This document shows, one piece after another, positions 7,170-29,688 of a DNA stretch of 64,000 nucleotides. The stretch covers positions 24,895 through 88,894 of the forward strand of contig CAYVOL010000001.1 of assembly GCA_964453135.1 (NCBI GenBank), in the 5' to 3' direction. The stretch comes from an uncultured Candidatus Saccharibacteria bacterium. GTDB taxonomy: Bacteria; Patescibacteriota; Minisyncoccia; UBA6257; UBA9933. The notes below the pieces were generated by a model that did no database searches, was not told the origin of the DNA, and worked only from the letters and a program-made list of their open reading frames with translations. A program made the position numbers and the translations under genes. Numbering within the stretch: the first letter of the stretch is position 1; every line of letters starts with the position of its first letter.

Positions 7170-8252
7170 TTAGTTTGCCACCAACGGGGCTGGACCCATC
7201 GGCGGCGAGAATAAAGGTCCGTTTGGAGGCAAAGGAGCCGGTCCGCCTCCTGGAAGTCCAGGGGAACCCGGAGGACCAATGGGACCTTGAGCGCCAACGG
7301 GGCCTTGTGAACCGACTGGGCCTTGCGGGCCTGCCGGACCTTGAGCGCCAGTTGCGCCCCCTGGCCCCTGAGGACCTGTCGAGCCCTGGGCTCCTTGAGA
7401 TCCTTGCGGACCTCTAAATCCTCGCGGACCCTGAACGCCTTGCTGGCCTTGGGGACCTTGCGGACCTACTGGGCCGCGAGGGTGATGAATGATATGGATG
7501 GAGGATGCTGCCGCTCCTCCGTAAATCGCGGCCTTATCAATGTCGCTCGCCGCCAAAAATGGGACGCCGCACTCCTCCGGAAGGAAGGCTTTTTCAAAAA
7601 TTCCTCCCAGAAGAGAACCACCGACCGCGGCTAACGCACCGATTGGATGGCTCATCGCCATGGCTCCGCCAAATCCGGCAAGCCCTCCCAAAGTGCCGCC
7701 CCATCCAGAGGGAGTACATCTTTTTTGCCAGGCATCTCTTCGCTCCAGGGCGTAATTCACCGCTGCCACCACATCTGCCTGAGTAATCTGCGGCTGTGGC
7801 GGAGGATACTGGTAAATAGCTTGAGGCGGTGGCGACGCTGGCATCGGCTGATACGACGCCGCTGCCGGCTGTTGAACAACTGCTTCTTGCGGCCGCGGAC
7901 GCGTTGCTGAAACCGCCCTGTCCTCAATGAAATTCAAAAACACTCGATTGAGAATAGGGTTGCCGCAGGCACATACTTTGTCCGCCAGCCAACGCTCTCC
8001 GTCTTTACGCATAGAGACTTCTGTTCCGACTGGCAACCAGCCAGTGGAAATTTTTCCGCTGGCGCCAATTATTTTCACCTCGGCATCCTCGTCCAACTTC
8101 ATGGTCGGGAGGTTTTCTTTCTTACAAAGGTCCGGCGCCACCGGGTCGGCGCCGATGTTAATATATTTTTTCCCGGTTTCCGCGGCAACGGGCGAAATCC
8201 CCGTCGCGGCTAATGCAACTATGGCAAGAGCAATGACACCCATTCTTCTCAT
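7170..8252 (-). CDS. Secreted collagen-like triple-helix repeat protein (GC-rich, SD-preceded)
   Basis: Signal peptide [25 protein letters not shown]-terminal run of G-X-Y triplets ([22 protein letters not shown]...). Strong SD aaggaggagggg upstream. Local GC is well above the neighbouring genes. Confidence 0.65.
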
Positions 8253-19777: not shown

Positions 19778-20425
19778 TTAAGCCAGTTGCGGAACAACAA
19801 CCCGACGCCTGTAGACGGCGTACCGAACGTCGTCACGCTCAAACCGGAGGACACGCACGCGGAGCTCGCCACCCGAGTACACGCGCACATACACGCAGGC
19901 AACAAAGAAATGCTCATGCGACTTAAACAAAAAGAATGTCGCGTAGCCGTCGGTTTGGAGCCACCTTCTGTGCCCTTTCACGAAGTCCTTTATCTGGGCT
20001 TGCGTGAGGCACAATTTGTTTGGGTCTGTAGAAATAGACCCGAACATCTGCGCGAAAGTGGCGTCTTTCACCAATTCATAAACTTGGACCGGCATTTCTT
20101 TGGTTGTCGGCCCGGGTGCGTCCGTGCCCCAAAGCCGAAAAGCGCTGTCTATATACGCGAAAACATCTTTCGCGTCTGCCAGAACTTCCTTGCCATCGGT
20201 CGCGCCCAGAATCAGCGCCTCGTCGTTGGAGATGAGACGAACAAATTCATTTCGGCTATTCGATCCCCCCTCTGCGAACCTCCCCTCAATCGCGCCCTGA
20301 AGATGCTTCTTTAGAGCTTCCGCATCGTAGGGATAACCATTTTTCTGCCTCAACTGCCTTCCGATTTCAAATAACTGCCCCGTAATACTCTCGTACAGTT
20401 CGCCCGCGACAATCTGCTTTGCCAT
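19778..20425 (-). CDS. ORFan hypothetical protein in a GC-rich patch (SD aaaggag, ATG start)
   Basis: 215 aa with no motifs I recognise. The local GC elevation also creates a long antisense ORF at 19787..20314, which I treat as an artefact. Confidence 0.5.
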   Translation of the reverse strand: MAKQIVAGELYESITGQLFEIGRQLRQKNGYPYDAEALKKHLQGAIEGRFAEGGSNSRNEFVRLISNDEALILGATDGKEVLADAKDVFAYIDSAFRLWGTDAPGPTTKEMPVQVYELVKDATFAQMFGSISTDPNKLCLTQAQIKDFVKGHRRWLQTDGYATFFLFKSHEHFFVACVYVRVYSGGELRVRVLRFERDDVRYAVYRRRVVVPQLA

Positions 20426-21816: not shown

Positions 21817-23067
21817 TTATTCCAGCGCTTTAATTCCGGGGAGTTTTTTGCCGGATAGATATTCTAACATCGCTCCTCCTCCTGTGGATATCCACAGGCG
21901 CGGAATAACGCGGACTTGACGCTGAATATCGCTGAATTTATTTCTGCGTAATTCTGCGTGGTTTTCTGCGAAATTCCGCGCATCGTTTTGAAAAAACGAT
22001 GAGGTTTCGCCGCCGCCGATAACGGAAAACGCTTTTTGGTTGCCGATTATTGCCTTGGCAACCGCTTCTGACGCGCGGGCAAATTTTTTATTTTCAAAAT
22101 AACCCATGGGCCCGTTCCAAATAATAACTCTGGCTTTTTTAATTATATCGGAATAAAGGCGCGCGGTATTGGGGCCGAGGTCTAAAATTTTTCTTTTTTC
22201 CACCACATAATCAATCGGCAGAATAATTTTTTTACTTCGCATCAGCCGGCGCGCCACTCCTTTTTCGTCCGCTGTTTTATCGTAGATAGAATCGCCGATG
22301 GGCAATCCTTGAACTTTTAAAAAATTATGGGCAATGCCTCCGCCGATAAGAAAATAATCGGCGCTCCGCCGGCCGGTAGACAAAAAATTTTTAATCAATC
22401 CGATTTTGTCGGAAATTTTCGCGCCACCCATTATGACGACCAGGGGATGCCTGTGATTTTTCAAAACTTTATCAAGATTTTTGACTTCTTTTTCCAGCAA
22501 TAATCCGGCGTACGACGGCAAAAACTTAGTAATGGCGCAGACCGAGGAGTCAGCGCGATGGCTTACCGCAAACGCATCATTGACGTAAAAATCTCCCAGA
22601 GACGCCAAACGCCGAGCCATGGCAACATTTCTCCAATCATCACTTTCTTCTCCCAAAAAAAACCTGAGATTTTCAAACAGCAAGACACTTCTCTGGTCGT
22701 CTTGAATAATCCTTCTGATATGCGGCCGCATAAAATAAGAGTATTCCAGAAATCCCACATTGGTTTTTAAAATATTTTCCAATAATTTCACGAATGGCGA
22801 GAGAGTGAAATCAAAATTTTCTTTGGCGAATTGCCAATCTATATTCACGCCGCGTAATAATTTTTCCTCCTGATGGATGGGACGCCCCCGATGGCTCAAC
22901 AAAACTATTTTTACTTTGTTTTTAAGAAGAAATTTTATGGTCGGTAAAATCGCCTGAATGCGCAGATTGTTTTTATCCAGTTCGCTGTTTTTTATATTCA
23001 AATCTACCCTCAACAGGCAAATTTTTCCCTGCAAATCTTTTTTTGATAAAGAGGATAGGAGTTTCAT
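21817..23067 (-). CDS. pgk: Phosphoglycerate kinase
   Basis: LLRVDLN N-terminal substrate-binding motif. C-terminal STGGGAMLEYL. Confidence 0.9.
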   Translation of the reverse strand: MKLLSSLSKKDLQGKICLLRVDLNIKNSELDKNNLRIQAILPTIKFLLKNKVKIVLLSHRGRPIHQEEKLLRGVNIDWQFAKENFDFTLSPFVKLLENILKTNVGFLEYSYFMRPHIRRIIQDDQRSVLLFENLRFFLGEESDDWRNVAMARRLASLGDFYVNDAFAVSHRADSSVCAITKFLPSYAGLLLEKEVKNLDKVLKNHRHPLVVIMGGAKISDKIGLIKNFLSTGRRSADYFLIGGGIAHNFLKVQGLPIGDSIYDKTADEKGVARRLMRSKKIILPIDYVVEKRKILDLGPNTARLYSDIIKKARVIIWNGPMGYFENKKFARASEAVAKAIIGNQKAFSVIGGGETSSFFQNDARNFAENHAELRRNKFSDIQRQVRVIPRLWISTGGGAMLEYLSGKKLPGIKALE

Positions 23068-23735
23068 TTGTTAAATATCAATTCTTCAAAAAAATGTTTT
23101 TTCGACTTTTCCGCCAATTCTAATATTTCAAAAAATCCCGGAATAAATTTGCTTTTGAATTTCGCGGCGTTTGCCCACTGGCAGACGCCTTTTTCCGAGT
23201 CGCAAATCAAACTCCCTGAAAACTTGTCGGAAAAAAACACATGGCATAGCATATGCGAAACCAGTTCTTGGTCTTTGTAAACGAGCAGGTAAGCGTCTCC
23301 TTTATGCGACACATCCGCCAAAAGTCCGGTTTTTTCTTTCAATTCCCGCTTCGCGGCTACTAAGAAATTCTCCCCGAAATGAATTTTGCCGTAAGGGAAT
23401 CCCGCTAAGCCGTGAAACGGCTGACGCTTGTTGAAATACAAAAGATGTTCTCCATTATTATTTTTGATTATCAAAAGATTGACGATTTTTGGCTGAACAC
23501 GGTGTTCCACCGACGAGAAACTTATTTTATCAACGAAACGCAACCCATTGCCGGTTAGCTTATAGCCACCAACGACTTTTTCAAGCAATCCTTCTTTGAT
23601 TAATCGCTTCAAATGATAAACAAAAAGATTACTTTCCGCTCCGGATGGCTTCAAGTCGCGATATCTTACGATATCGCCCACGGCCATTTTCTTCAAGATA
23701 TATTTCGCAATATCCATAAAAACATGTTTAGTCAA
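23064..23735 (-). CDS. Winged-helix DNA-binding domain fused to a Nudix hydrolase domain
   Basis: N-terminal wHTH-like segment (VRYRDLKPSGAESNLFVYHLKRLIKEGLL). Nudix box GENFLVAAKRELKEKTGL. Overlaps the pgk start by 4 nt. Confidence 0.55.
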   Translation of the reverse strand: MTKHVFMDIAKYILKKMAVGDIVRYRDLKPSGAESNLFVYHLKRLIKEGLLEKVVGGYKLTGNGLRFVDKISFSSVEHRVQPKIVNLLIIKNNNGEHLLYFNKRQPFHGLAGFPYGKIHFGENFLVAAKRELKEKTGLLADVSHKGDAYLLVYKDQELVSHMLCHVFFSDKFSGSLICDSEKGVCQWANAAKFKSKFIPGFFEILELAEKSKKHFFEELIFNK

Positions 23736-23844
23736 TTAAATTTGACTCAACCCTATTTTGTCTTGAATCTCATTCTTTTACAACCTAATTTTATATTAGA
23801 ACATTAACACAAATCCAACAACCTTCTATTTGAAAGGGGATGCC

Positions 23845-24555
23845 ATGGAAATCCTAATTAGAAATCCCGAACTACCGGAAAAATGCGGCAAAGCGCGGAT
23901 CAGTTACGAAAATAATATCATCCAACCCTCGAGGAACGGGGAAACGATACACCTGCCCATAAAAGTAAAACATCAATATGCAGATGGATGCTTCATGGAC
24001 CTGCATCTCTTACAACAAAAGACGCAATTCCTTTTTTCTATAGCGCCGTACCATGGTAATGGCATTGTTTACGAAAGTGATCGATTGCTGTGGTTCGGAG
24101 GGACTGACGAAGAACCATTCCTGACAAGACTTAATCCGTATGCTCTATATGTATTTGAACAATGCGGAGAAAAAGGTTTCTTTGAGTATCTGAAGCCAAA
24201 AGAAATTGTAGAAATGGAATCTATAACCGGAAAAGGAACAAAAAGGCAAGGCGATATTTTCGCTATGCCCGTGCCGTTTCCTTGGAAGACAATAGAGACT
24301 ATGGCACGACTGATACGAGATGAAAGCGAGAGCCGGGGAGAACTAATGGAGACCGAGAAAGATGGCGTCAGTGTCTATGGCACCAGACATCGATTCACGG
24401 GCATCACAACATCCGTCCACATCAAGGTTGCCTCGCTTTCTCTCTGGATTTGTGAGGGCGTCCTTACGGCGCCGGATCATCAAGATTTAGAACTGAAAGA
24501 GCCGCATGCCTTATTCCAGGCGGCCAATCTCTTTGATCCGAAAAACGCCGATTGA
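23845..24555 (+). CDS. ORFan hypothetical protein (SD aaagggga, ATG 23845; ORF-track TTG 23830)
   Basis: No motif I recognise. Converges on the shared terminator at 24585-24615. Confidence 0.45.
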   Translation: MEILIRNPELPEKCGKARISYENNIIQPSRNGETIHLPIKVKHQYADGCFMDLHLLQQKTQFLFSIAPYHGNGIVYESDRLLWFGGTDEEPFLTRLNPYALYVFEQCGEKGFFEYLKPKEIVEMESITGKGTKRQGDIFAMPVPFPWKTIETMARLIRDESESRGELMETEKDGVSVYGTRHRFTGITTSVHIKVASLSLWICEGVLTAPDHQDLELKEPHALFQAANLFDPKNAD

Positions 24556-24584
24556 TTTTCGGCTGACTGGGATGAAACGAAAAT

Positions 24585-24615
24585 AGCCTCCACCAGGTAA
24601 TACCTGGTGGAGGCT
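24585..24615. terminator. Bidirectional hairpin terminator
   Basis: agcctccaccaggtaatacctggtggaggct flanked by A/T runs. Confidence 0.65.
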
Positions 24616-24638
24616 ATTATATTGCTTGCGAATTTCCC

Positions 24639-25112
24639 CTATTTCTTCCGCTCTTTCATATGCGGGATATCGAGAATCTTCGCGAAATAGACATCTGTCT
24701 CCTGCTCTTCTATTTTTTCCTCCTTTCTTGTTGTCTCCGTCTCCGTTGACGGAAGAGGCGAAGGTTTTTCGCTTTCCGTAGCGGCGGCATGCTGTTCCTC
24801 GCCTTTCTTTTCCCTCCTTTCAGCCAACACGCCGTCAAAATACTGTTTCTTTTCGGCGTAAAGCTGACTCTCACCGGCGGTCAAATCTTCGCCGGTTACA
24901 AGTTTTGTTATGACCCGCTCATTGGCAATCACCGACTTGCGGGCCTCCACTTTGGAATCGAGGCGATCCTTGTGGTGGGAGTAAAAATTCTGCTCTTCTT
25001 TCGTCAGTTCATTGCCCTGGACGATTTTTTCAACCACCGCCGAGTCATCCGGAGCTCCGCAACCCGCCAAAGCAAAAGCAAGAATCAAGCTCATGGCTAT
25101 GGTTTTTTTCAT
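24639..25112 (-). CDS. Lipoprotein with two internal ~25-aa repeats and an acidic C-terminus
   Basis: Lipobox LALAGC. Repeats EKIVQGNELTKEEQNFYSHHKDRL and TKLVTGEDLTAGESQLYAEKKQYF. Its start abuts the SPFH stop. Confidence 0.5.
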   Translation of the reverse strand: MKKTIAMSLILAFALAGCGAPDDSAVVEKIVQGNELTKEEQNFYSHHKDRLDSKVEARKSVIANERVITKLVTGEDLTAGESQLYAEKKQYFDGVLAERREKKGEEQHAAATESEKPSPLPSTETETTRKEEKIEEQETDVYFAKILDIPHMKERKK

Positions 25113-26366
25113 TTACTTCTTCTCCGGCGTTTTACCGCCCTTCACGCTCAGGTCCACCCCAAGCGTTTTGGCGGCCTGTATAGTCAGCAAATCCATCATG
25201 CTGGCTACGGGCTGTCCGGGCGCATACGTTCCATTGGCCCCGCCCATGACGATTTGCGGAGTCCAGTTTTGCTTGCCAAACTCCTGAGCAAACCTGCCCA
25301 TTACCCGCTCCAGAGTCTCAAGCTTGAGAGCCAGGGCGCCATCCGCCTGCATAATCAGGCGGCGCTTCTCGCCCTCACCCTGACCGAGCAAGATATCCCT
25401 TTGTCTGGTGAATTCGGCCGCCTCTTTGTCAAGCTTGGCGACCTCCTTCCTTTGCTCGGCTTCAGTAACCGCTTTCGCCTTCAGAGCTTCCTGAGTCCAT
25501 TTGGCTCTAGCGGCCGCCGCCTGGCCGTCTTTCTCCGCGGTAATCGCGGCCTGTTCAGACTTTTTCGCCTGGGCGATAGCCGTCTGAACTTGCATAATTG
25601 CGTCTTGTTGCTGCTTAATCTGCCCCTCAACAATTTCATCGTACAGCACCTCATTTATTGAGGGATTGAAAACCCGGATGCCGAACTCTTTAAGCGGCGA
25701 TTCGTCCGCACGAATGTAATTGCCGCTTTTGTCGCGCATCAACTGCACGATATTGACCGTTTTCATCTGACCGGTCATCTGATCAGGAACTCGTTGCTGG
25801 ACCGTTTCAGTCCGGTAGATCCCATTCTGGACCTGGTCCTCAATGAACGTAAGAAGCTCGTTGCGGCGCTCCGCATACGACTCCTTCGAGCTCATCAAAG
25901 GGCCGGTCATGTACACGGCTTTTTCAACCACCGTGCGAATTAGTTGCTGTTCAACCGCACGCTCAGTCTTGTACTTACTGAGGAGCTTGTACAAATGCCC
26001 CTCATCAATCGGCATCTCCCATGAGATTGACCCGGAGATGCGGGCATGGCCGCCGTCATTAAAGCGAATTTTGATTGACTCGTCCTGCTCCTTTCCCTGG
26101 TCCCCCTTAGAGGAGAACCAGAATTGAGTCCGCTTGTGAAAGCGTGTTACGGTAGCGAGCCACTGGGTATACGGCCCCTGCTCCGTTATCCATCGAATAT
26201 TTCCGGTTGGGTATTGAAGCGAAACAATTTCTTCCGCCCCTACCCATATAATCATCTTGAAAGCGGATACAATCAAAAGTACCGCCATCAAGATGCCAAC
26301 AATTCCGGCAAACATCTTCTTCCCGCTACTAAAAAAGTCGCTCTCCACGTCTTGCTCCTTTCGCAA
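25113..26366 (-). CDS. SPFH/band-7 (prohibitin/flotillin-like) domain membrane protein with a C-terminal coiled coil
   Basis: N-terminal TM, SPFH-like core, Ala/Gln/Lys-rich heptad segment (AIAQAKKSEQAAITAEKDGQAAAARAKW...). GTG at 26348 preceded by SD aaaggag is an alternative start. Confidence 0.6.
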   Translation of the reverse strand: MRKEQDVESDFFSSGKKMFAGIVGILMAVLLIVSAFKMIIWVGAEEIVSLQYPTGNIRWITEQGPYTQWLATVTRFHKRTQFWFSSKGDQGKEQDESIKIRFNDGGHARISGSISWEMPIDEGHLYKLLSKYKTERAVEQQLIRTVVEKAVYMTGPLMSSKESYAERRNELLTFIEDQVQNGIYRTETVQQRVPDQMTGQMKTVNIVQLMRDKSGNYIRADESPLKEFGIRVFNPSINEVLYDEIVEGQIKQQQDAIMQVQTAIAQAKKSEQAAITAEKDGQAAAARAKWTQEALKAKAVTEAEQRKEVAKLDKEAAEFTRQRDILLGQGEGEKRRLIMQADGALALKLETLERVMGRFAQEFGKQNWTPQIVMGGANGTYAPGQPVASMMDLLTIQAAKTLGVDLSVKGGKTPEKK

Positions 26367-26396
26367 TAATTTGATTTTTTCGTTAGCTTCTTCGCG

Positions 26397-26663
26397 CTAC
26401 TTTTCTTCCACTCTTTTTTCTTTTTTGCCTACGCTCCTCCTCCTTTGTTTAAGAGCCTCCTGTAAATCGGCAACCTTCTCCCGCGTCGCCAGATCCGCCA
26501 TTTCTTCCTCGGCTTCTGCCAAGCCCTTCTCCGATTTCTTGAAAATCCAAAAGAAGGGTTTACTGGAGAAAGCCGGATACACCACCTGGCTGACCAAAAA
26601 CGACGCCAGCACAAGGACCAAGACGATTTCTGCGACTTCCACAACTGCCAGCATCAATATCAC
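26397..26663 (-). CDS. Small single-pass membrane protein (operon partner of SPFH)
   Basis: 88 aa, N-terminal TM, charged tail. 4-nt overlap with the upstream transglycosylase gene. Confidence 0.35.
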
Positions 26664-27337
26664 CCCCTTTCCACTTCTATCTTATTGGCTTTCTTTACCA
26701 CTTTCTCCCCGTACCTCCGCAAATGCCTTTTCCAGTGCGAGCCGGCGTAATACTTAGCCGCCGCGATCTTTTCAGCGCGAAACGAACCAGTGTCCGCTCC
26801 GGCGTTTCTAAGATAAAGCGCGGTAGCCAGGAAGGCGTCTCTGTGTCTCCATGGAGAGGGATGTTTGCCTGTAAGAAAAGCGATCTGGCCGCTGTATTCC
26901 GCCCAAGTTGACGGGATAAACTGCGCCGGCCCCATTGCCCCTCCATAAGTTCCGTCGCGGGCAATGGGACAAGAAACCGGAATCGTATCTGGATTCAAAC
27001 CCGATTCCCTGACAATTTCCAGAAATACAGGAATATCGCGCGTCGGGTGCATAGCAGTTTTATAATTGCACTTACCCATGCTTTTCCCCAACGTTGACTC
27101 GCGGTCCAAAACCGCCAGAATCAAGGCGGCGCGAACTCCGGTTTTCGATTCGGCAAACTTGGCGAATTTATAAGCGTCTTCAAACTTAAGCTCTCCGCCG
27201 CCGATAAATTCAAAAGTCTTATCCACCCTTTCCTTTTCTACCCAAATCATAGTCGCCATAAAAGCGACAATAATCACAATTAAAGCCGCCAAAGCGGAAG
27301 CTACCTTTGGGAATATCTTCTTGGCAATTGTTGTCAA
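26660..27337 (-). CDS. Membrane-anchored MltB-like lytic transglycosylase (SLT_2-type domain)
   Basis: [14 protein letters not shown], the family-3 lytic transglycosylase motif. SD aggagg plus TTG start. Confidence 0.6.
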
Positions 27338-27586
27338 TGTAATTTCCTCCTAATTCTGATAAAAGTTGTTCTTTTTGTTTTTAGAGATGTCTATTCTTAT
27401 TCTATTGTGAAGGTACTTATTCAGGCCGAAAAGTCAGCGGCCCGAATATTTTAAGCAGCCGCCCCATGATAAATCGCAGGGAATTTGCTTCCTCGTATTT
27501 ATCCATAATTTGATTAAATTGTCAAATTAATGTAAAATTATAATTTAAATATTTGGATTATGGTGTGCCTTTCAAAACTACTGCGA

Positions 27587-29005
27587 CTAAGCGTTTAAGG
27601 TATTTATATCCTGCTGGAATTCGTTGGCTTTCGTGACGGCTTTTTCTCCGTAGCTCCACAGATAATTTCTCCAGCGGGCGCCGGCGTAATATTTAGCCGC
27701 GGCAATTCTCTCGGCGTTAAACGAGCCCGCATCCGCTCCGGCATTTTTCAGAAAAAGAGCGGTGGCCAAAAAAGCATCGATATTTTTCCAAGGGGACGGA
27801 GGATTGTCGCCGGTAAAAGAAGCTATTTGGTCGCTGTATTTTGTCCAGGTGGAAGGAAGAAACTGCGCCGGACCCATTGCGCCGCCGTAAGCGCCGTCGC
27901 GAGAAATGGGACAAGAAACCATGGTCGTGTCCGGATTCAAATCAAGCGCTTTGGTGATTGCCAAAAAAATGGGAATGTCGCGCGTCGGATGCATGGCGTC
28001 TTTATAATTACATTTCCCCACATTTTTCCCCATAGCGGACTCGCGGTCCAACACCGCCAAAACCAGGGCGGCGCGCACGCCGGTTTTTGATTCGGCGAAC
28101 TTGGCAAATTTATACGCGTCTTCAAATTTCAGTTCTCCGCCGCCGATAAGTTCAAAAATCCTGCTTCTTATTTGTGCAGCAGTTTTTTGTGTTTCCGCCA
28201 GAATTTTTTTATACTCCGATTCTTTCCCTTTGGTAACTGTCAGCAGATTATTTTTTTCTTCTTTTGTTTTTTGGATAGAATTTTTTTGCTCTTCCTGGTA
28301 GCTTTTCAAAACCAGGGCGTCGTTTTTTTTCAAAGCCAGCTGTTCTTTCTGGTCCATCAATTCGCCGCGCAAACTGTTTAATTCCTGGACCGCCGCCCCT
28401 AATCTTTCCTGAGTGCTGTTAAGATGGCTTATTTCGTTAAAAGCGTCGGAGATTTTATTATTGGCCAAAATAACCGTGGCGATGTTCTCATTGTTTTTCT
28501 GATACATTTCCTGAAGAAGGAGAGAAATTATTTTTTTCTTGACGGTCATCTTGTCCTCAGTAGAGGTAATTTGGGATTGGGTCTGAACAAGGTCTTTATC
28601 CAGTTTTCGCAAGGTTAAGGTGACGGCTTTTATCTGCAGGCTTAATTTGGCAATTTTGTCGTTTAATTTTTTAATTTCCGACTGCAGGCTGTTGCCTTGT
28701 TTTTTGTATTCTCCGATTTTCTTTTCGTATTCATTCATCTGGCTTTCTAGCTGAGCCAGTTGAGCTTCCAGGGCTTTTCTTTCTTCGGAATTATTGGCTG
28801 ATTGAGCAGCCATAACTCCTCCGCTCGTGGGGGCCAGCACAGAATTAAGCACGAAAGAAGCAATAAAGAACAAAACAAAAAAAACGCTTAAGATGTTTTT
28901 AAGCGGCACTCGGATTACTTTTTGATAATTAAGATTTATCTGGCGAGGGTGATTATAATAGGAACTTCCTTCTTTTTTGATATCCCGAAGAATTTTTTGT
29001 CTCAT
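27587..29005 (-). CDS. TM anchor, ~250-aa coiled coil and C-terminal MltB-like lytic transglycosylase domain (paralog of 26660..27337)
   Basis: The C-terminal 190 aa align to the upstream paralog at about 70-75% aa identity ([14 protein letters not shown]). The N-terminal region is heptad-rich (LQSEIKKLNDKIAKLSLQIKAVTLTLRKLDKDL...). Confidence 0.65.
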   Translation of the reverse strand: MRQKILRDIKKEGSSYYNHPRQINLNYQKVIRVPLKNILSVFFVLFFIASFVLNSVLAPTSGGVMAAQSANNSEERKALEAQLAQLESQMNEYEKKIGEYKKQGNSLQSEIKKLNDKIAKLSLQIKAVTLTLRKLDKDLVQTQSQITSTEDKMTVKKKIISLLLQEMYQKNNENIATVILANNKISDAFNEISHLNSTQERLGAAVQELNSLRGELMDQKEQLALKKNDALVLKSYQEEQKNSIQKTKEEKNNLLTVTKGKESEYKKILAETQKTAAQIRSRIFELIGGGELKFEDAYKFAKFAESKTGVRAALVLAVLDRESAMGKNVGKCNYKDAMHPTRDIPIFLAITKALDLNPDTTMVSCPISRDGAYGGAMGPAQFLPSTWTKYSDQIASFTGDNPPSPWKNIDAFLATALFLKNAGADAGSFNAERIAAAKYYAGARWRNYLWSYGEKAVTKANEFQQDINTLNA

Positions 29006-29043: not shown

Positions 29044-29688
29044 TTACTCGCTGGATTCCTTGCCCTTCTCTTTCTTTTTCTCTTCTCCTTCCACCTTGAC
29101 GTCTTCTACGCTCGCCGCCGCCGGAGCCGCTTCTTCTTTGGTTTGTTCAATAATAGTAGCAACCGCCGTATCGGGGTCAAGAAAGATTTTAACTGCTTTA
29201 GGAATAGCGAGGTCTTTAATGTAAACGCTATTGTGAAGCTCGGCCAATTTTTCCAAATTCACCTTTATGGCGCCGGGCAGATCAGCCGGCAAAGATTCCA
29301 CTTCAATTTCTTTCTTCAGTTTGACCAAAACGCCGCCTTGCTTTACCGCCGGAGATTCTCCGGTAAATTCCAAAGGAACTTTAGTTCTGATTTTTTCGTC
29401 CATTCTCACCGCGTAAAAATCAACGTGCCGCAATTCCCCGGTTAGCGAATCAAGCTGGACGTCGTAAATAAGCGCCGGAAATTTCTGGTTTTCCAGCACT
29501 AAATTTATCACCGTATTCTCGCCCGCTTCCTTGAAAACCTTTTTAAAATCCTTAGCCGCGATGCTCAAATGGCTGTTTTCTATATTGTGGCCGTAAAGTT
29601 CTGCCGGCGCCAGCCCGTCTTTCTTTAATGCTTTAACCGCTTTCCCGAAAATATCTCTTTTTTGAACTGTTAATTCCATAGCGGCCAT
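29044..29688 (-). CDS. rplY: 50S ribosomal protein L25 / general stress protein Ctc
   Basis: MELTVQKRDIFGKAVKALKKDGLAPAELYG N-terminus plus C-terminal Ctc extension. Confidence 0.8.
   Translation of the reverse strand: MAAMELTVQKRDIFGKAVKALKKDGLAPAELYGHNIENSHLSIAAKDFKKVFKEAGENTVINLVLENQKFPALIYDVQLDSLTGELRHVDFYAVRMDEKIRTKVPLEFTGESPAVKQGGVLVKLKKEIEVESLPADLPGAIKVNLEKLAELHNSVYIKDLAIPKAVKIFLDPDTAVATIIEQTKEEAAPAAASVEDVKVEGEEKKKEKGKESSE

Follow-up and report, generated by a model that had tools for sequence, protein, structure and literature searches.

Results and Discussion

A 64,000-nt window of the genome of an uncultured Candidatus Saccharibacteria bacterium (contig CAYVOL010000001.1) contains five consecutive minus-strand genes, which encode a lytic transglycosylase with a long coiled coil (CC-LT), a second lytic transglycosylase with a transmembrane anchor (TM-LT), a small transmembrane (TM) protein, an SPFH (Band-7) membrane protein and a repeat lipoprotein (Table 1). 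This region is likely to be a composite of two parts with different histories, a core CC-LT gene and an inserted cassette with the other four genes, and not one dedicated operon. The five open reading frames (ORFs) are present in the ORF list of the window exactly at the coordinates given in a first-pass annotation, which had taken them for a single operon of SPFH and transglycosylase genes; this reading was not supported, since CC-LT is tied to the gene for ribosomal protein L25/Ctc and the other four genes apparently form an insertion, which is absent from the closest relative (contig L167).

Gene order and insertion site

Contig L167, whose CC-LT is 83% identical to that of the window, shows the gene order Fba, L25, CC-LT, a convergent hypothetical gene and a NUDIX hydrolase gene, with a spacer of 91 bp where the window has 3,030 bp. 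When L167 was compared with the window by blastn, homology stopped at 27591 and restarted at 24560. At the level of the nucleotide alignment, this shows the intervening 3.03 kb, with the genes for TM-LT, the small TM protein, the SPFH protein and the lipoprotein, to be a lineage-specific insertion. The composition of the inserted genes is atypical: for the SPFH gene, the GC content at third codon positions (GC3) is 0.645, which is the highest of the 58 window genes used for the composition statistics (mean 0.484, standard deviation 0.047) and about 3.4 standard deviations above the mean; GC3 of the small TM gene was 0.607 and that of the lipoprotein gene 0.561. At the ends of the insertion no target-site duplications, terminal inverted repeats, flanking repeats or integrase were found, and the identification of a mobile element by such hallmarks was rejected.

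Coiled-coil transglycosylase

The domain assignments of the first-pass annotation were borne out by Pfam searches: SLT_2 was matched by CC-LT with 44.4 bits and by TM-LT with 47.3 bits (gathering score 24.3), and Band_7 (PF01145) by residues 54-269 of the 417-aa SPFH protein with 32.3 bits (gathering score 23.6). A homology search with CC-LT yielded 2,489 homologs, 120 of which were listed; these had lengths of 435-507 aa (nearly all about 470), identities of 51-83% and coverages of 92-100%, and originated from Wolfebacteria, Paceibacterota and other Patescibacteria, some of them bearing the automatic annotation "lytic murein transglycosylase" or "CwlO-like" (JGI). The L25/Ctc gene is situated directly upstream of the CC-LT ortholog in all five contexts which were retrieved (L167-L171) and, with the window included, in six of six. 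The conserved context and the homologs show CC-LT to be a core, vertically inherited and predicted envelope enzyme of Patescibacteria, tied to the L25 gene.

An AlphaFold 2 (AF2) model of CC-LT, which was computed with 40 orthologs (predicted local distance difference test score, pLDDT, 76), consists of a TM helix (residues 35-54), two helices of about 100 residues each (71-171 and 185-287) with a tip helix between them (175-181), and the transglycosylase (LT) domain, an SLT_2 domain at about 290-471 with the catalytic residue E322. The long helices form an antiparallel coiled-coil hairpin with pLDDT values of 80-94 over most of its length. The earlier description of a TM anchor, a coiled coil and a murein hydrolase was therefore correct except for the length of the coiled coil, which is about 217 aa and not about 250 aa; the hairpin and the SLT_2 head of the model also agree with the layout of PcsB and EnvC which had been suggested, with a transglycosylase in place of CHAP or LytM. 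E322 and S323 are invariant across the 40 orthologs, and both are retained in TM-LT. Nearly invariant positions are also present in the first 35 residues or so of the orthologs, which suggests a conserved cytoplasmic tail and anchor rather than a disposable signal peptide.

The LT domains could be aligned with SltB1 of Pseudomonas aeruginosa and Slt35 of Escherichia coli through the catalytic Glu-Ser and the GAMG.QF.PS motifs, the sequence DRES aligning with the catalytic VET of SltB1. Both domains resemble the family 3 enzymes (MltB, Slt35, SltB1; SLT_2) in scoring above the Pfam threshold and in possessing the catalytic E-S motif. They differ from MltB in that only about 150 of the 292 profile positions, the central ones, are covered, and in their scores of 26-33 bits with the NCBIfam equivalogs MltB and MltB_2 (cut-offs 248-449); furthermore, CC-LT and TM-LT are devoid of a lipoprotein anchor, the domain being joined to the coiled coil in the former and to a single TM helix in the latter.

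With EnvC, PcsB, CwlO and RipC, which are wall hydrolases or activators with a coiled coil and are governed by FtsEX, CC-LT has in common an N-terminal segment for export or anchoring, a long hairpin of antiparallel coiled coil and, at the C-terminus, a domain which cleaves peptidoglycan; the architectural parallel to EnvC, PcsB and CwlO is real, as judged from the model. The NCBIfam model of EnvC aligned to the coiled coil with E = 8.9e-9, but with 34.8 bits against a cut-off of 270. Foldseek comparison of the CC-LT model retrieved EnvC (8tzl, 6tpi; complexes with FtsEX) with E = 0.06-0.1 and the corynebacterial protein Cg1735, both behind SMC arms, and none with E <= 0.001. In contrast to EnvC, PcsB and CwlO, the catalytic module of CC-LT is SLT_2 and not LytM, CHAP or NlpC/P60, its N-terminus is a tail of about 35 aa followed by a TM helix and not obviously a cleaved signal peptide, and the partner FtsEX was found neither in the window nor beside the five orthologs.

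A search for FtsEX had been proposed in the first-pass annotation. It was carried out by tblastn with FtsE and FtsX from L165, a contig which possesses both and was taken from its gene content as probably belonging to the candidate phyla radiation (CPR); no homolog was detected in the 64-kb window, and the contexts of the five orthologs (L167-L171) contained no FtsEX beside CC-LT. By analogy, a control of CC-LT by FtsEX is possible. Between FtsE and FtsX of L165 (7358-9328), where a hydrolase or an activator might be expected, a secreted protein of 656 aa is encoded, which is rich in G, T and N, has no Pfam match and is not coiled-coil-like. A literature search yielded nothing which linked Patescibacteria to a coiled-coil transglycosylase of the CC-LT kind. 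Toxin-antitoxin pairs of the HepT/MNT (nucleotidyltransferase) type were noticed at a distance of a few kb from the CC-LT ortholog in L168 (9090-9738), and likewise from the SPFH module in L163 (5319-6150) and L164 (3971-4793).

The membrane-anchored paralog

TM-LT has a TM anchor at about residues 15-33, with the N-terminus predicted inside and the domain outside, and is a partial paralog of the catalytic domain of CC-LT. The two LT domains are identical in 134 of 183 residues (73%) and have a common signature ending in (L/I)PSTW. DNA identities of about 75%, and about 88% near the 5' end, had been reported for them at first reading and were reproduced by measurement (74.8% over 184 codons; 88.9% in the first 90 nt); the conclusion drawn from them, a recent duplication or gene conversion, was not. 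Codons for the same amino acid differ in 43% of cases between the paralogs and in 45% between the orthologs of the window and L167, so the age of the duplication should be close to that of the split from the L167 species. The domain of TM-LT is nearest to that of its own CC-LT (73%), followed by the homologs P0122 and P0125 (70.5%), and the domain of the window CC-LT is 88% identical to that of P0122; in a neighbour-joining tree TM-LT was placed, with a long branch, as sister to the pair of window CC-LT and P0122. A recent duplication was rejected in view of the synonymous divergence, which about equals that of the orthologs, and of the long branch outside this pair. Gene conversion at the 5' end was rejected as well, since synonymous differences in the 5' segment (9/29) and elsewhere (49/105) were not significantly different (Fisher p = 0.14); the high DNA identity is explained by 29 of 30 amino acids being identical there.

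No closer short form of TM-LT was detected in 5.8 billion clusters, the best non-self match having 65% identity and most matches being CC-LT fragments at contig ends. Nonsynonymous differences were 50/184 between the paralogs and 21/189 between the orthologs, and the protein sequence of TM-LT has evolved about 2.4 times faster than that of the ortholog pair. Of 59 residues invariant in the family, TM-LT has kept 51, the catalytic Glu-Ser among them, which suggests that it is probably an active transglycosylase.

Neighbours of SPFH genes

A recurrent link between SPFH and transglycosylase genes had been implied by the first reading, and a check of co-occurrence gave no indication of it. An LT homolog adjoining the SPFH gene was present in none of about 160 other loci, and occurred in the window's own organism only; the five closest relatives of the SPFH protein (58-66% identity) were likewise without an LT. 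A Pfam census of near neighbours, comprising 150 deduplicated viral and 116 genomic ones (266), contained no wall-hydrolase family with as many as two members in either set: viral SPFH genes are found among AAA ATPases, genes of nucleotide metabolism and Tad2-type genes, and genomic ones among unrelated housekeeping genes. From the missing LT at other SPFH loci and the lack of hydrolase enrichment it follows that the link is idiosyncratic; as far as can be judged from gene order, the pairing of TM-LT with the SPFH gene is a one-off in this lineage, specific to this genome. In view of the tight spacing, TM-LT is likely to be co-transcribed with the SPFH genes.

A hydrolase gene is found close to an SPFH gene in phage crAss001 (L172, 3757-5997), where the small TM protein Gp92, the SPFH protein Gp91, Gp90 (84 aa, with two hydrophobic segments) and the glucosaminidase Gp89 are encoded in this order. 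The locus resembles the window by an SPFH protein of the same family (phrog_11908; 31% identity), a small TM ORF upstream and a hydrolase two genes downstream; it differs in that the glucosaminidase is unrelated to SLT_2, the repeat lipoprotein is missing and the adjacency of a hydrolase is not general in phages. A general rule of lysis cassettes, prompted by Gp89, was rejected because hydrolases were not enriched among the neighbours. The order of Gp92 to Gp89 could represent a lysis-region arrangement, which is not discussed in the literature searched.

The contrary explanation is that all five genes of the window constitute one dedicated module for envelope remodelling or division, in which the SPFH scaffold organizes two paralogous transglycosylases and the coupling has been selected. 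The genes are on the same strand, with no terminator between CC-LT and the cassette and one strong terminator at the end, the junction of TM-LT and small TM genes is -4 or +5 nt, and an outward orientation is predicted for TM-LT, for the SPFH domain and for the lipoprotein alike; in addition, the catalytic residues are kept in TM-LT, and in crAss001 a wall hydrolase is encoded two genes away from the SPFH protein. Such a module is nevertheless considered unlikely, since no LT was present at the roughly 160 other SPFH loci or in the five closest relatives, the cassette is wholly absent from the closest CC-LT relative, no wall-hydrolase family was enriched among the 266 neighbours, and CC-LT is conserved together with L25 without any SPFH gene.

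SPFH protein and its partners

The SPFH protein matched phrog_11908 (1.2e-47, 164 bits) far above generic Band_7. A search yielded 3,186 homologs; 120 of these were listed, with identities of about 50-55% in nearly all cases. The 169 genome loci were from Patescibacteria, Saccharibacteria, Nanoarchaeota, Bryobacteraceae, Nitrospirae, Bacteroidota, Obscuribacterales, Methylococcaceae and Verrucomicrobia, and the family occurs on at least 134 viral contigs of IMG/VR, many of them 100-480 kb in size; among its phage carriers are crAss001-like phages (31% identity), Vibrio phages (25%) and a 462-kb uncultured phage (49%). The pair of small TM and SPFH genes is common to Patescibacteria, DPANN archaea (Nanoarchaeota metagenome-assembled genomes (MAGs) L020 and L022), unrelated bacterial phyla and huge phages at about 40-55% identity (L003-L082; IMG/VR L083-L162).

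In the AF2 model of the SPFH protein (pLDDT 75), a TM segment (residues 10-38) is followed by the SPFH domain (39-242), a helix of 99 residues (244-342) and a C-terminal region. Foldseek retrieved prohibitin, HflK/C, erlin, flotillin, stomatin and QmcA with a probability of 1.00 and identities of at most 14%; a search of the PDB with the sequence profile gave no matches, and the link to the solved cages is by fold comparison only. The architecture of the cage formers, i.e., membrane anchor, SPFH domain and long coiled-coil helix, is present in full length in the monomer model. Positive-inside statistics over 155 members (2.7 K+R before the TM helix, 0.7 after it) predict the N-terminus inside and the C-terminus outside. 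With HflK/C-FtsH, prohibitin and erlin, which were the best fold matches, the protein would share the N-terminal TM segment, the SPFH domain, the very long helix and this topology. In contrast to HflK and HflC, it is encoded by a single gene and not as one of a heterodimeric pair (NCBIfam HflC, E = 0.072, 11.9 bits against a cut-off of 134.4), and a protease partner such as FtsH is absent; the partners here are the small TM protein and repeat lipoproteins.

When all genes within six of the SPFH gene were clustered for 158 loci, a single conserved neighbour emerged, a small protein encoded at position -1 on the same strand. By jackhmmer, homologs of the small TM protein were found in 107 loci, 104 of which belong to the 158 SPFH loci, on the same strand and directly upstream; upstream ORFs of like architecture (N-terminal TM segment and charged helix) are present in about 19 more loci as well as in crAss001 and phage Thalassa. 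In the first-pass annotation, the link to an SPFH scaffold in place of the usual NfeD partner had seemed unusual; the conserved upstream partner is the small single-pass TM protein. The small TM proteins share the juxtamembrane motif TQ..P...G.P.FP.FRK and possess a charged helix which should be cytoplasmic, the positive-inside values of the family (0.6 and 2.4) predicting the N-terminus outside and the C-terminus inside. NfeD (PF01957) was not matched by the small TM protein of the window at E <= 0.1, nor by eight members of the family at E <= 0.05; with no Pfam family in these nine proteins and a size of 60-110 aa, which leaves no room for an oligonucleotide/oligosaccharide-binding (OB) fold, an identity with NfeD was rejected. 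The arrangement is similar to the SPFH-NfeD operons (QmcA-YbbJ, FloA-NfeD, YqiK-YqiJ) in having a co-oriented gene for a small membrane protein immediately upstream of the SPFH gene, but the partner consists here of one TM segment and a charged helix without an NfeD domain, and the predictions place its soluble part in the cytoplasm but the SPFH domain on the outer side.

The description of the last gene product as a repeat lipoprotein proved right: it has the lipobox LAGC and two copies of a repeat of about 35 aa, IVxKLxxGExLTxEExxxYxxxK. With a hidden Markov model (HMM) of the repeat, 9 ORFs in 6 loci were found, each immediately downstream of the SPFH gene, and L174 has one also. In the four closest relatives and one Nanoarchaeota MAG, the repeat proteins are lipoproteins or pilin-like (N_methyl). 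Those at L163 4079-5180, L164 9313-10303, L174 3766-4947 and L022 5838-6365 belong to this group, the lipoproteins having 1-4 copies of the repeat. The repeat family matches no Pfam family and is rare, with 5 matches in 1.84 billion representatives. In the subclade of the window, the repeat protein would be a third component of the SPFH module, as suggested by its position. A relationship to SHOCT was rejected, since six repeat proteins gave no SHOCT match when scanned against Pfam at a permissive threshold (E <= 5); SlmA-like_C (E = 0.00069, 20.1 bits, cut-off 27) and Glycos_trans_3N were matched below threshold only.

Horizontal acquisition of SPFH genes is reported to be frequent (PMC13086221). 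The module of small TM and SPFH genes has probably been moved across domains by extensive horizontal transfer, with phages as the probable vehicles.

The phage carriers bring up the notion that the insertion could be what is left of a lysis cassette from a phage, or a device for attacking walls, with TM-LT as a signal-anchor endolysin, the small TM protein as holin or antiholin, and the SPFH protein and lipoprotein as lysis regulators or spanin-like proteins. The SPFH family is abundant in phages, the gene order of crAss001 (small TM protein, SPFH, a protein with two TM segments, glucosaminidase) would be in accord with this, the composition of the cassette is atypical, and the N-terminal anchor of TM-LT resembles that of signal-arrest-release (SAR) endolysins. 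We regard this explanation as very unlikely: TM-LT descends from the LT domain of the host's core enzyme and not from a phage enzyme, its PHROGs endolysin match is marginal (E = 0.0014), and the cassette, which is flanked by housekeeping genes, is accompanied neither by further phage genes nor by an integrase or by repeats at its flanks. Moreover, the SPFH pairs of phages are situated among AAA, nucleotide-metabolism and anti-defence genes and not among lysis genes, and cellular pairs stand alone among housekeeping genes. Patescibacteria are not known to possess an outer membrane, and spanins would then have no role. A host-wall-attacking device, which the first reading had also considered, received no specific support.

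A module unrelated to the wall, which consists of the small TM and SPFH proteins (with or without the repeat protein) and is spread by phages for conflict or membrane protection, is considered rather unlikely. Its roles could be superinfection exclusion, countering of membrane-disrupting defence effectors, or membrane stabilization under stress in the manner of PspA-linked SPFH proteins; in Bacillus subtilis an SPFH protein is reported to tether the phage-shock protein to the membrane (PMC8581546). Isolated two-gene islands, which occur patchily in different domains of life and are about 50% identical, would be in line with this idea, as would the frequency in large phages beside auxiliary or anti-defence genes such as Tad2 and the HepT/MNT pairs close by in L163 and L164. 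On the other hand, no conserved effector or sensor gene is located nearby, and the function of phage SPFH proteins has been called poorly understood (PMC7760394). PADLOC gave no defence model above noise (a 14.9-bit DpdA match for the SPFH protein, coiled-coil noise for CC-LT), and membership in a defence system was rejected, as nothing credible was obtained.

Possible functions of the two parts

For the composite of core gene and cassette, the following scheme may be proposed. CC-LT would be held in the membrane by one TM helix with the conserved cytoplasmic tail, carrying a family 3 (MltB-type) LT domain on the antiparallel hairpin of about 100 residues; it may act in wall remodelling or in the separation of daughter cells, in the manner of EnvC, PcsB and CwlO, and the hairpin could serve to regulate or position the enzyme. 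TM-LT is a copy of the LT domain which has shed the coiled coil and acquired a new TM anchor. The small TM, SPFH and repeat lipoprotein genes make up a horizontally mobile module, whose family circulates in phages, many bacterial phyla and DPANN archaea. In analogy to the structures of HflK/C, prohibitin and erlin, the SPFH protein could oligomerize via its long helix and so cover a patch of the cytoplasmic membrane from outside with a dome; within this patch the small TM protein would reside, its charged helix pointing into the cytoplasm, and repeat proteins with lipid or pilin anchors may bind at the outer face. TM-LT, whose domain is likewise predicted to be outside, would be positioned for the role of a client and could possibly have been captured as such by the cage. 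The full form of this idea, an outward-facing, HflK/C-like cage disseminated by phages which gates a captured membrane-anchored LT instead of a protease, appears quite improbable.

Several points weigh against the scheme or parts of it. The empty site of L167 could mean a loss and not an original absence. Synonymous sites may be saturated, which makes the dating of the duplication rough, and by fold comparison the coiled coil resembles EnvC no more closely than it does SMC arms. The census of neighbours was based on crude ORF calls and the top 25 Pfam families, and sporadic hydrolase neighbours such as Gp89 of crAss001 do exist. The spacing of TM-LT and small TM genes (-4 or +5 nt) suggests translational coupling, and a functional link unique to this organism could be real. 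Oligomerization, topology and protein contacts are derived from composition, a monomer model and analogy.

Gene borders and flanking genes

The genes had been described as overlapping at their junctions (Table 1). An overlap is possible for TM-LT and small TM genes, where it would be 4 nt with a GTG start of the latter; with ATG at 26654 there is a gap of 5 nt, and this start is more likely in view of a GGGGG Shine-Dalgarno sequence and the agreement with an 85-aa call in L001. The other junctions do not overlap: 249 nt (27338-27586) separate CC-LT and TM-LT, the gap between small TM and SPFH genes is 30-48 nt, according to the start codon, and SPFH and lipoprotein genes abut with 0 nt (TAAATG). 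For the SPFH gene, GTG at 26348, with AAGGAG upstream and a product of 411 aa as in P0001, is a more likely start than TTG at 26366. The public (NCBI) call of TM-LT has 196 aa and lacks the TM helix; the TTG with AGGAGG 7 nt upstream gives 225 aa.

Table 1. Features of the analysed region, with positions numbered from the first nucleotide of the window.
Feature	Position	Strand	Basis and remarks
L25/Ctc ribosomal protein gene	29044..29688	-	ORF list; 38-nt gap to CC-LT; conserved upstream neighbour, context for the core unit
CC-LT, 472 aa	27587..29005	-	Pfam SLT_2 1.6e-11; SltB/MltB alignment; 2,489 homologs; AF2 pLDDT 76
Lineage-specific insertion (putative), 3.03 kb	24561..27590	-	blastn against empty site of L167
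AT-rich spacer between CC-LT and TM-LT	27338..27586	-	Promoter-like sites by consensus match; no terminator
TM-LT, 225 aa	26660..27337	-	Pfam SLT_2 2.1e-12; 73% identity to own CC-LT; AGGAGG before TTG start
Small single-pass TM protein, 85-88 aa	26397..26663	-	jackhmmer homologs upstream of SPFH genes; likely ATG start 26654
SPFH/Band-7 protein, 411-417 aa	25113..26366	-	Band_7 32.3 bits; phrog_11908 1.2e-47; 3,186 homologs; likely GTG start 26348
Repeat lipoprotein, 157 aa, lipobox LAGC	24639..25112	-	Repeat HMM; two repeats of about 35 aa
Hairpin, 18-bp perfect stem, then TTTTCGTTT	24582..24618	-	Likely cassette terminator

In the spacer between CC-LT and TM-LT, TTGAAA-16-AATATT (27575-27548) and a perfect TTGACA (about 27518-27513) resemble promoter sites, as consensus matches alone. 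No terminator was found after CC-LT in this spacer, and read-through into the cassette is therefore possible. An ORF of 29 codons (MDKYEEANSLRFIMGRLLKIFGPLTFRPE) is situated in the spacer at 27404-27493 (minus strand) and is not annotated in public assemblies. The hairpin behind the lipoprotein gene is likely to be the terminator of the cassette, acting bidirectionally with the convergent gene at 23830-24555. This plus-strand ORF of 241 aa has no match in Pfam, NCBIfam, PHROG or PADLOC; it is kept at the same position in L167 (57% identity), convergent with the CC-LT unit. At 23064-23735 (minus strand), a NUDIX hydrolase with an N-terminal winged-helix-like segment is encoded, for which Pfam PBP2 scored 25.5 bits, below the cut-off of 27; the gene adjoins pgk in the window, and partly so in L167, whose contig stops after the NUDIX gene. 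Further outliers in composition are the genes at 19778-20425 and 7170-8252 (both minus strand), one with a GC3 of 0.619 and the other with an overall GC content of 0.585; they may be further horizontal acquisitions.

Conclusions

The coupling of SPFH and transglycosylase genes in the window appears to be an accident of gene order in a single lineage and should not be generalized; the significance of the region lies mainly in the CPR-wide CC-LT and in the cross-domain, phage-borne SPFH module, not in their juxtaposition. CC-LT, which is common in Patescibacteria and already annotated automatically, would be a coiled-coil wall hydrolase with a transglycosylase head, and as such it is a concrete candidate for the way in which the ultra-small Patescibacteria split or remodel their wall. 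The SPFH protein appears to be of the cage type, with a partner other than NfeD, and belongs to a widespread and uncharacterised group; together with the small TM protein it makes up a compact module, which is shared at about 50% identity by huge phages, crAss-like phages, many bacterial phyla and DPANN archaea. Since this portable module is present in cultivable phages (crAss001, Vibrio phage Thalassa), a tractable system is at hand. The gating of a wall hydrolase by a cage, if true, would be a previously undescribed control of an autolysin in an organism with a minimal envelope toolkit.

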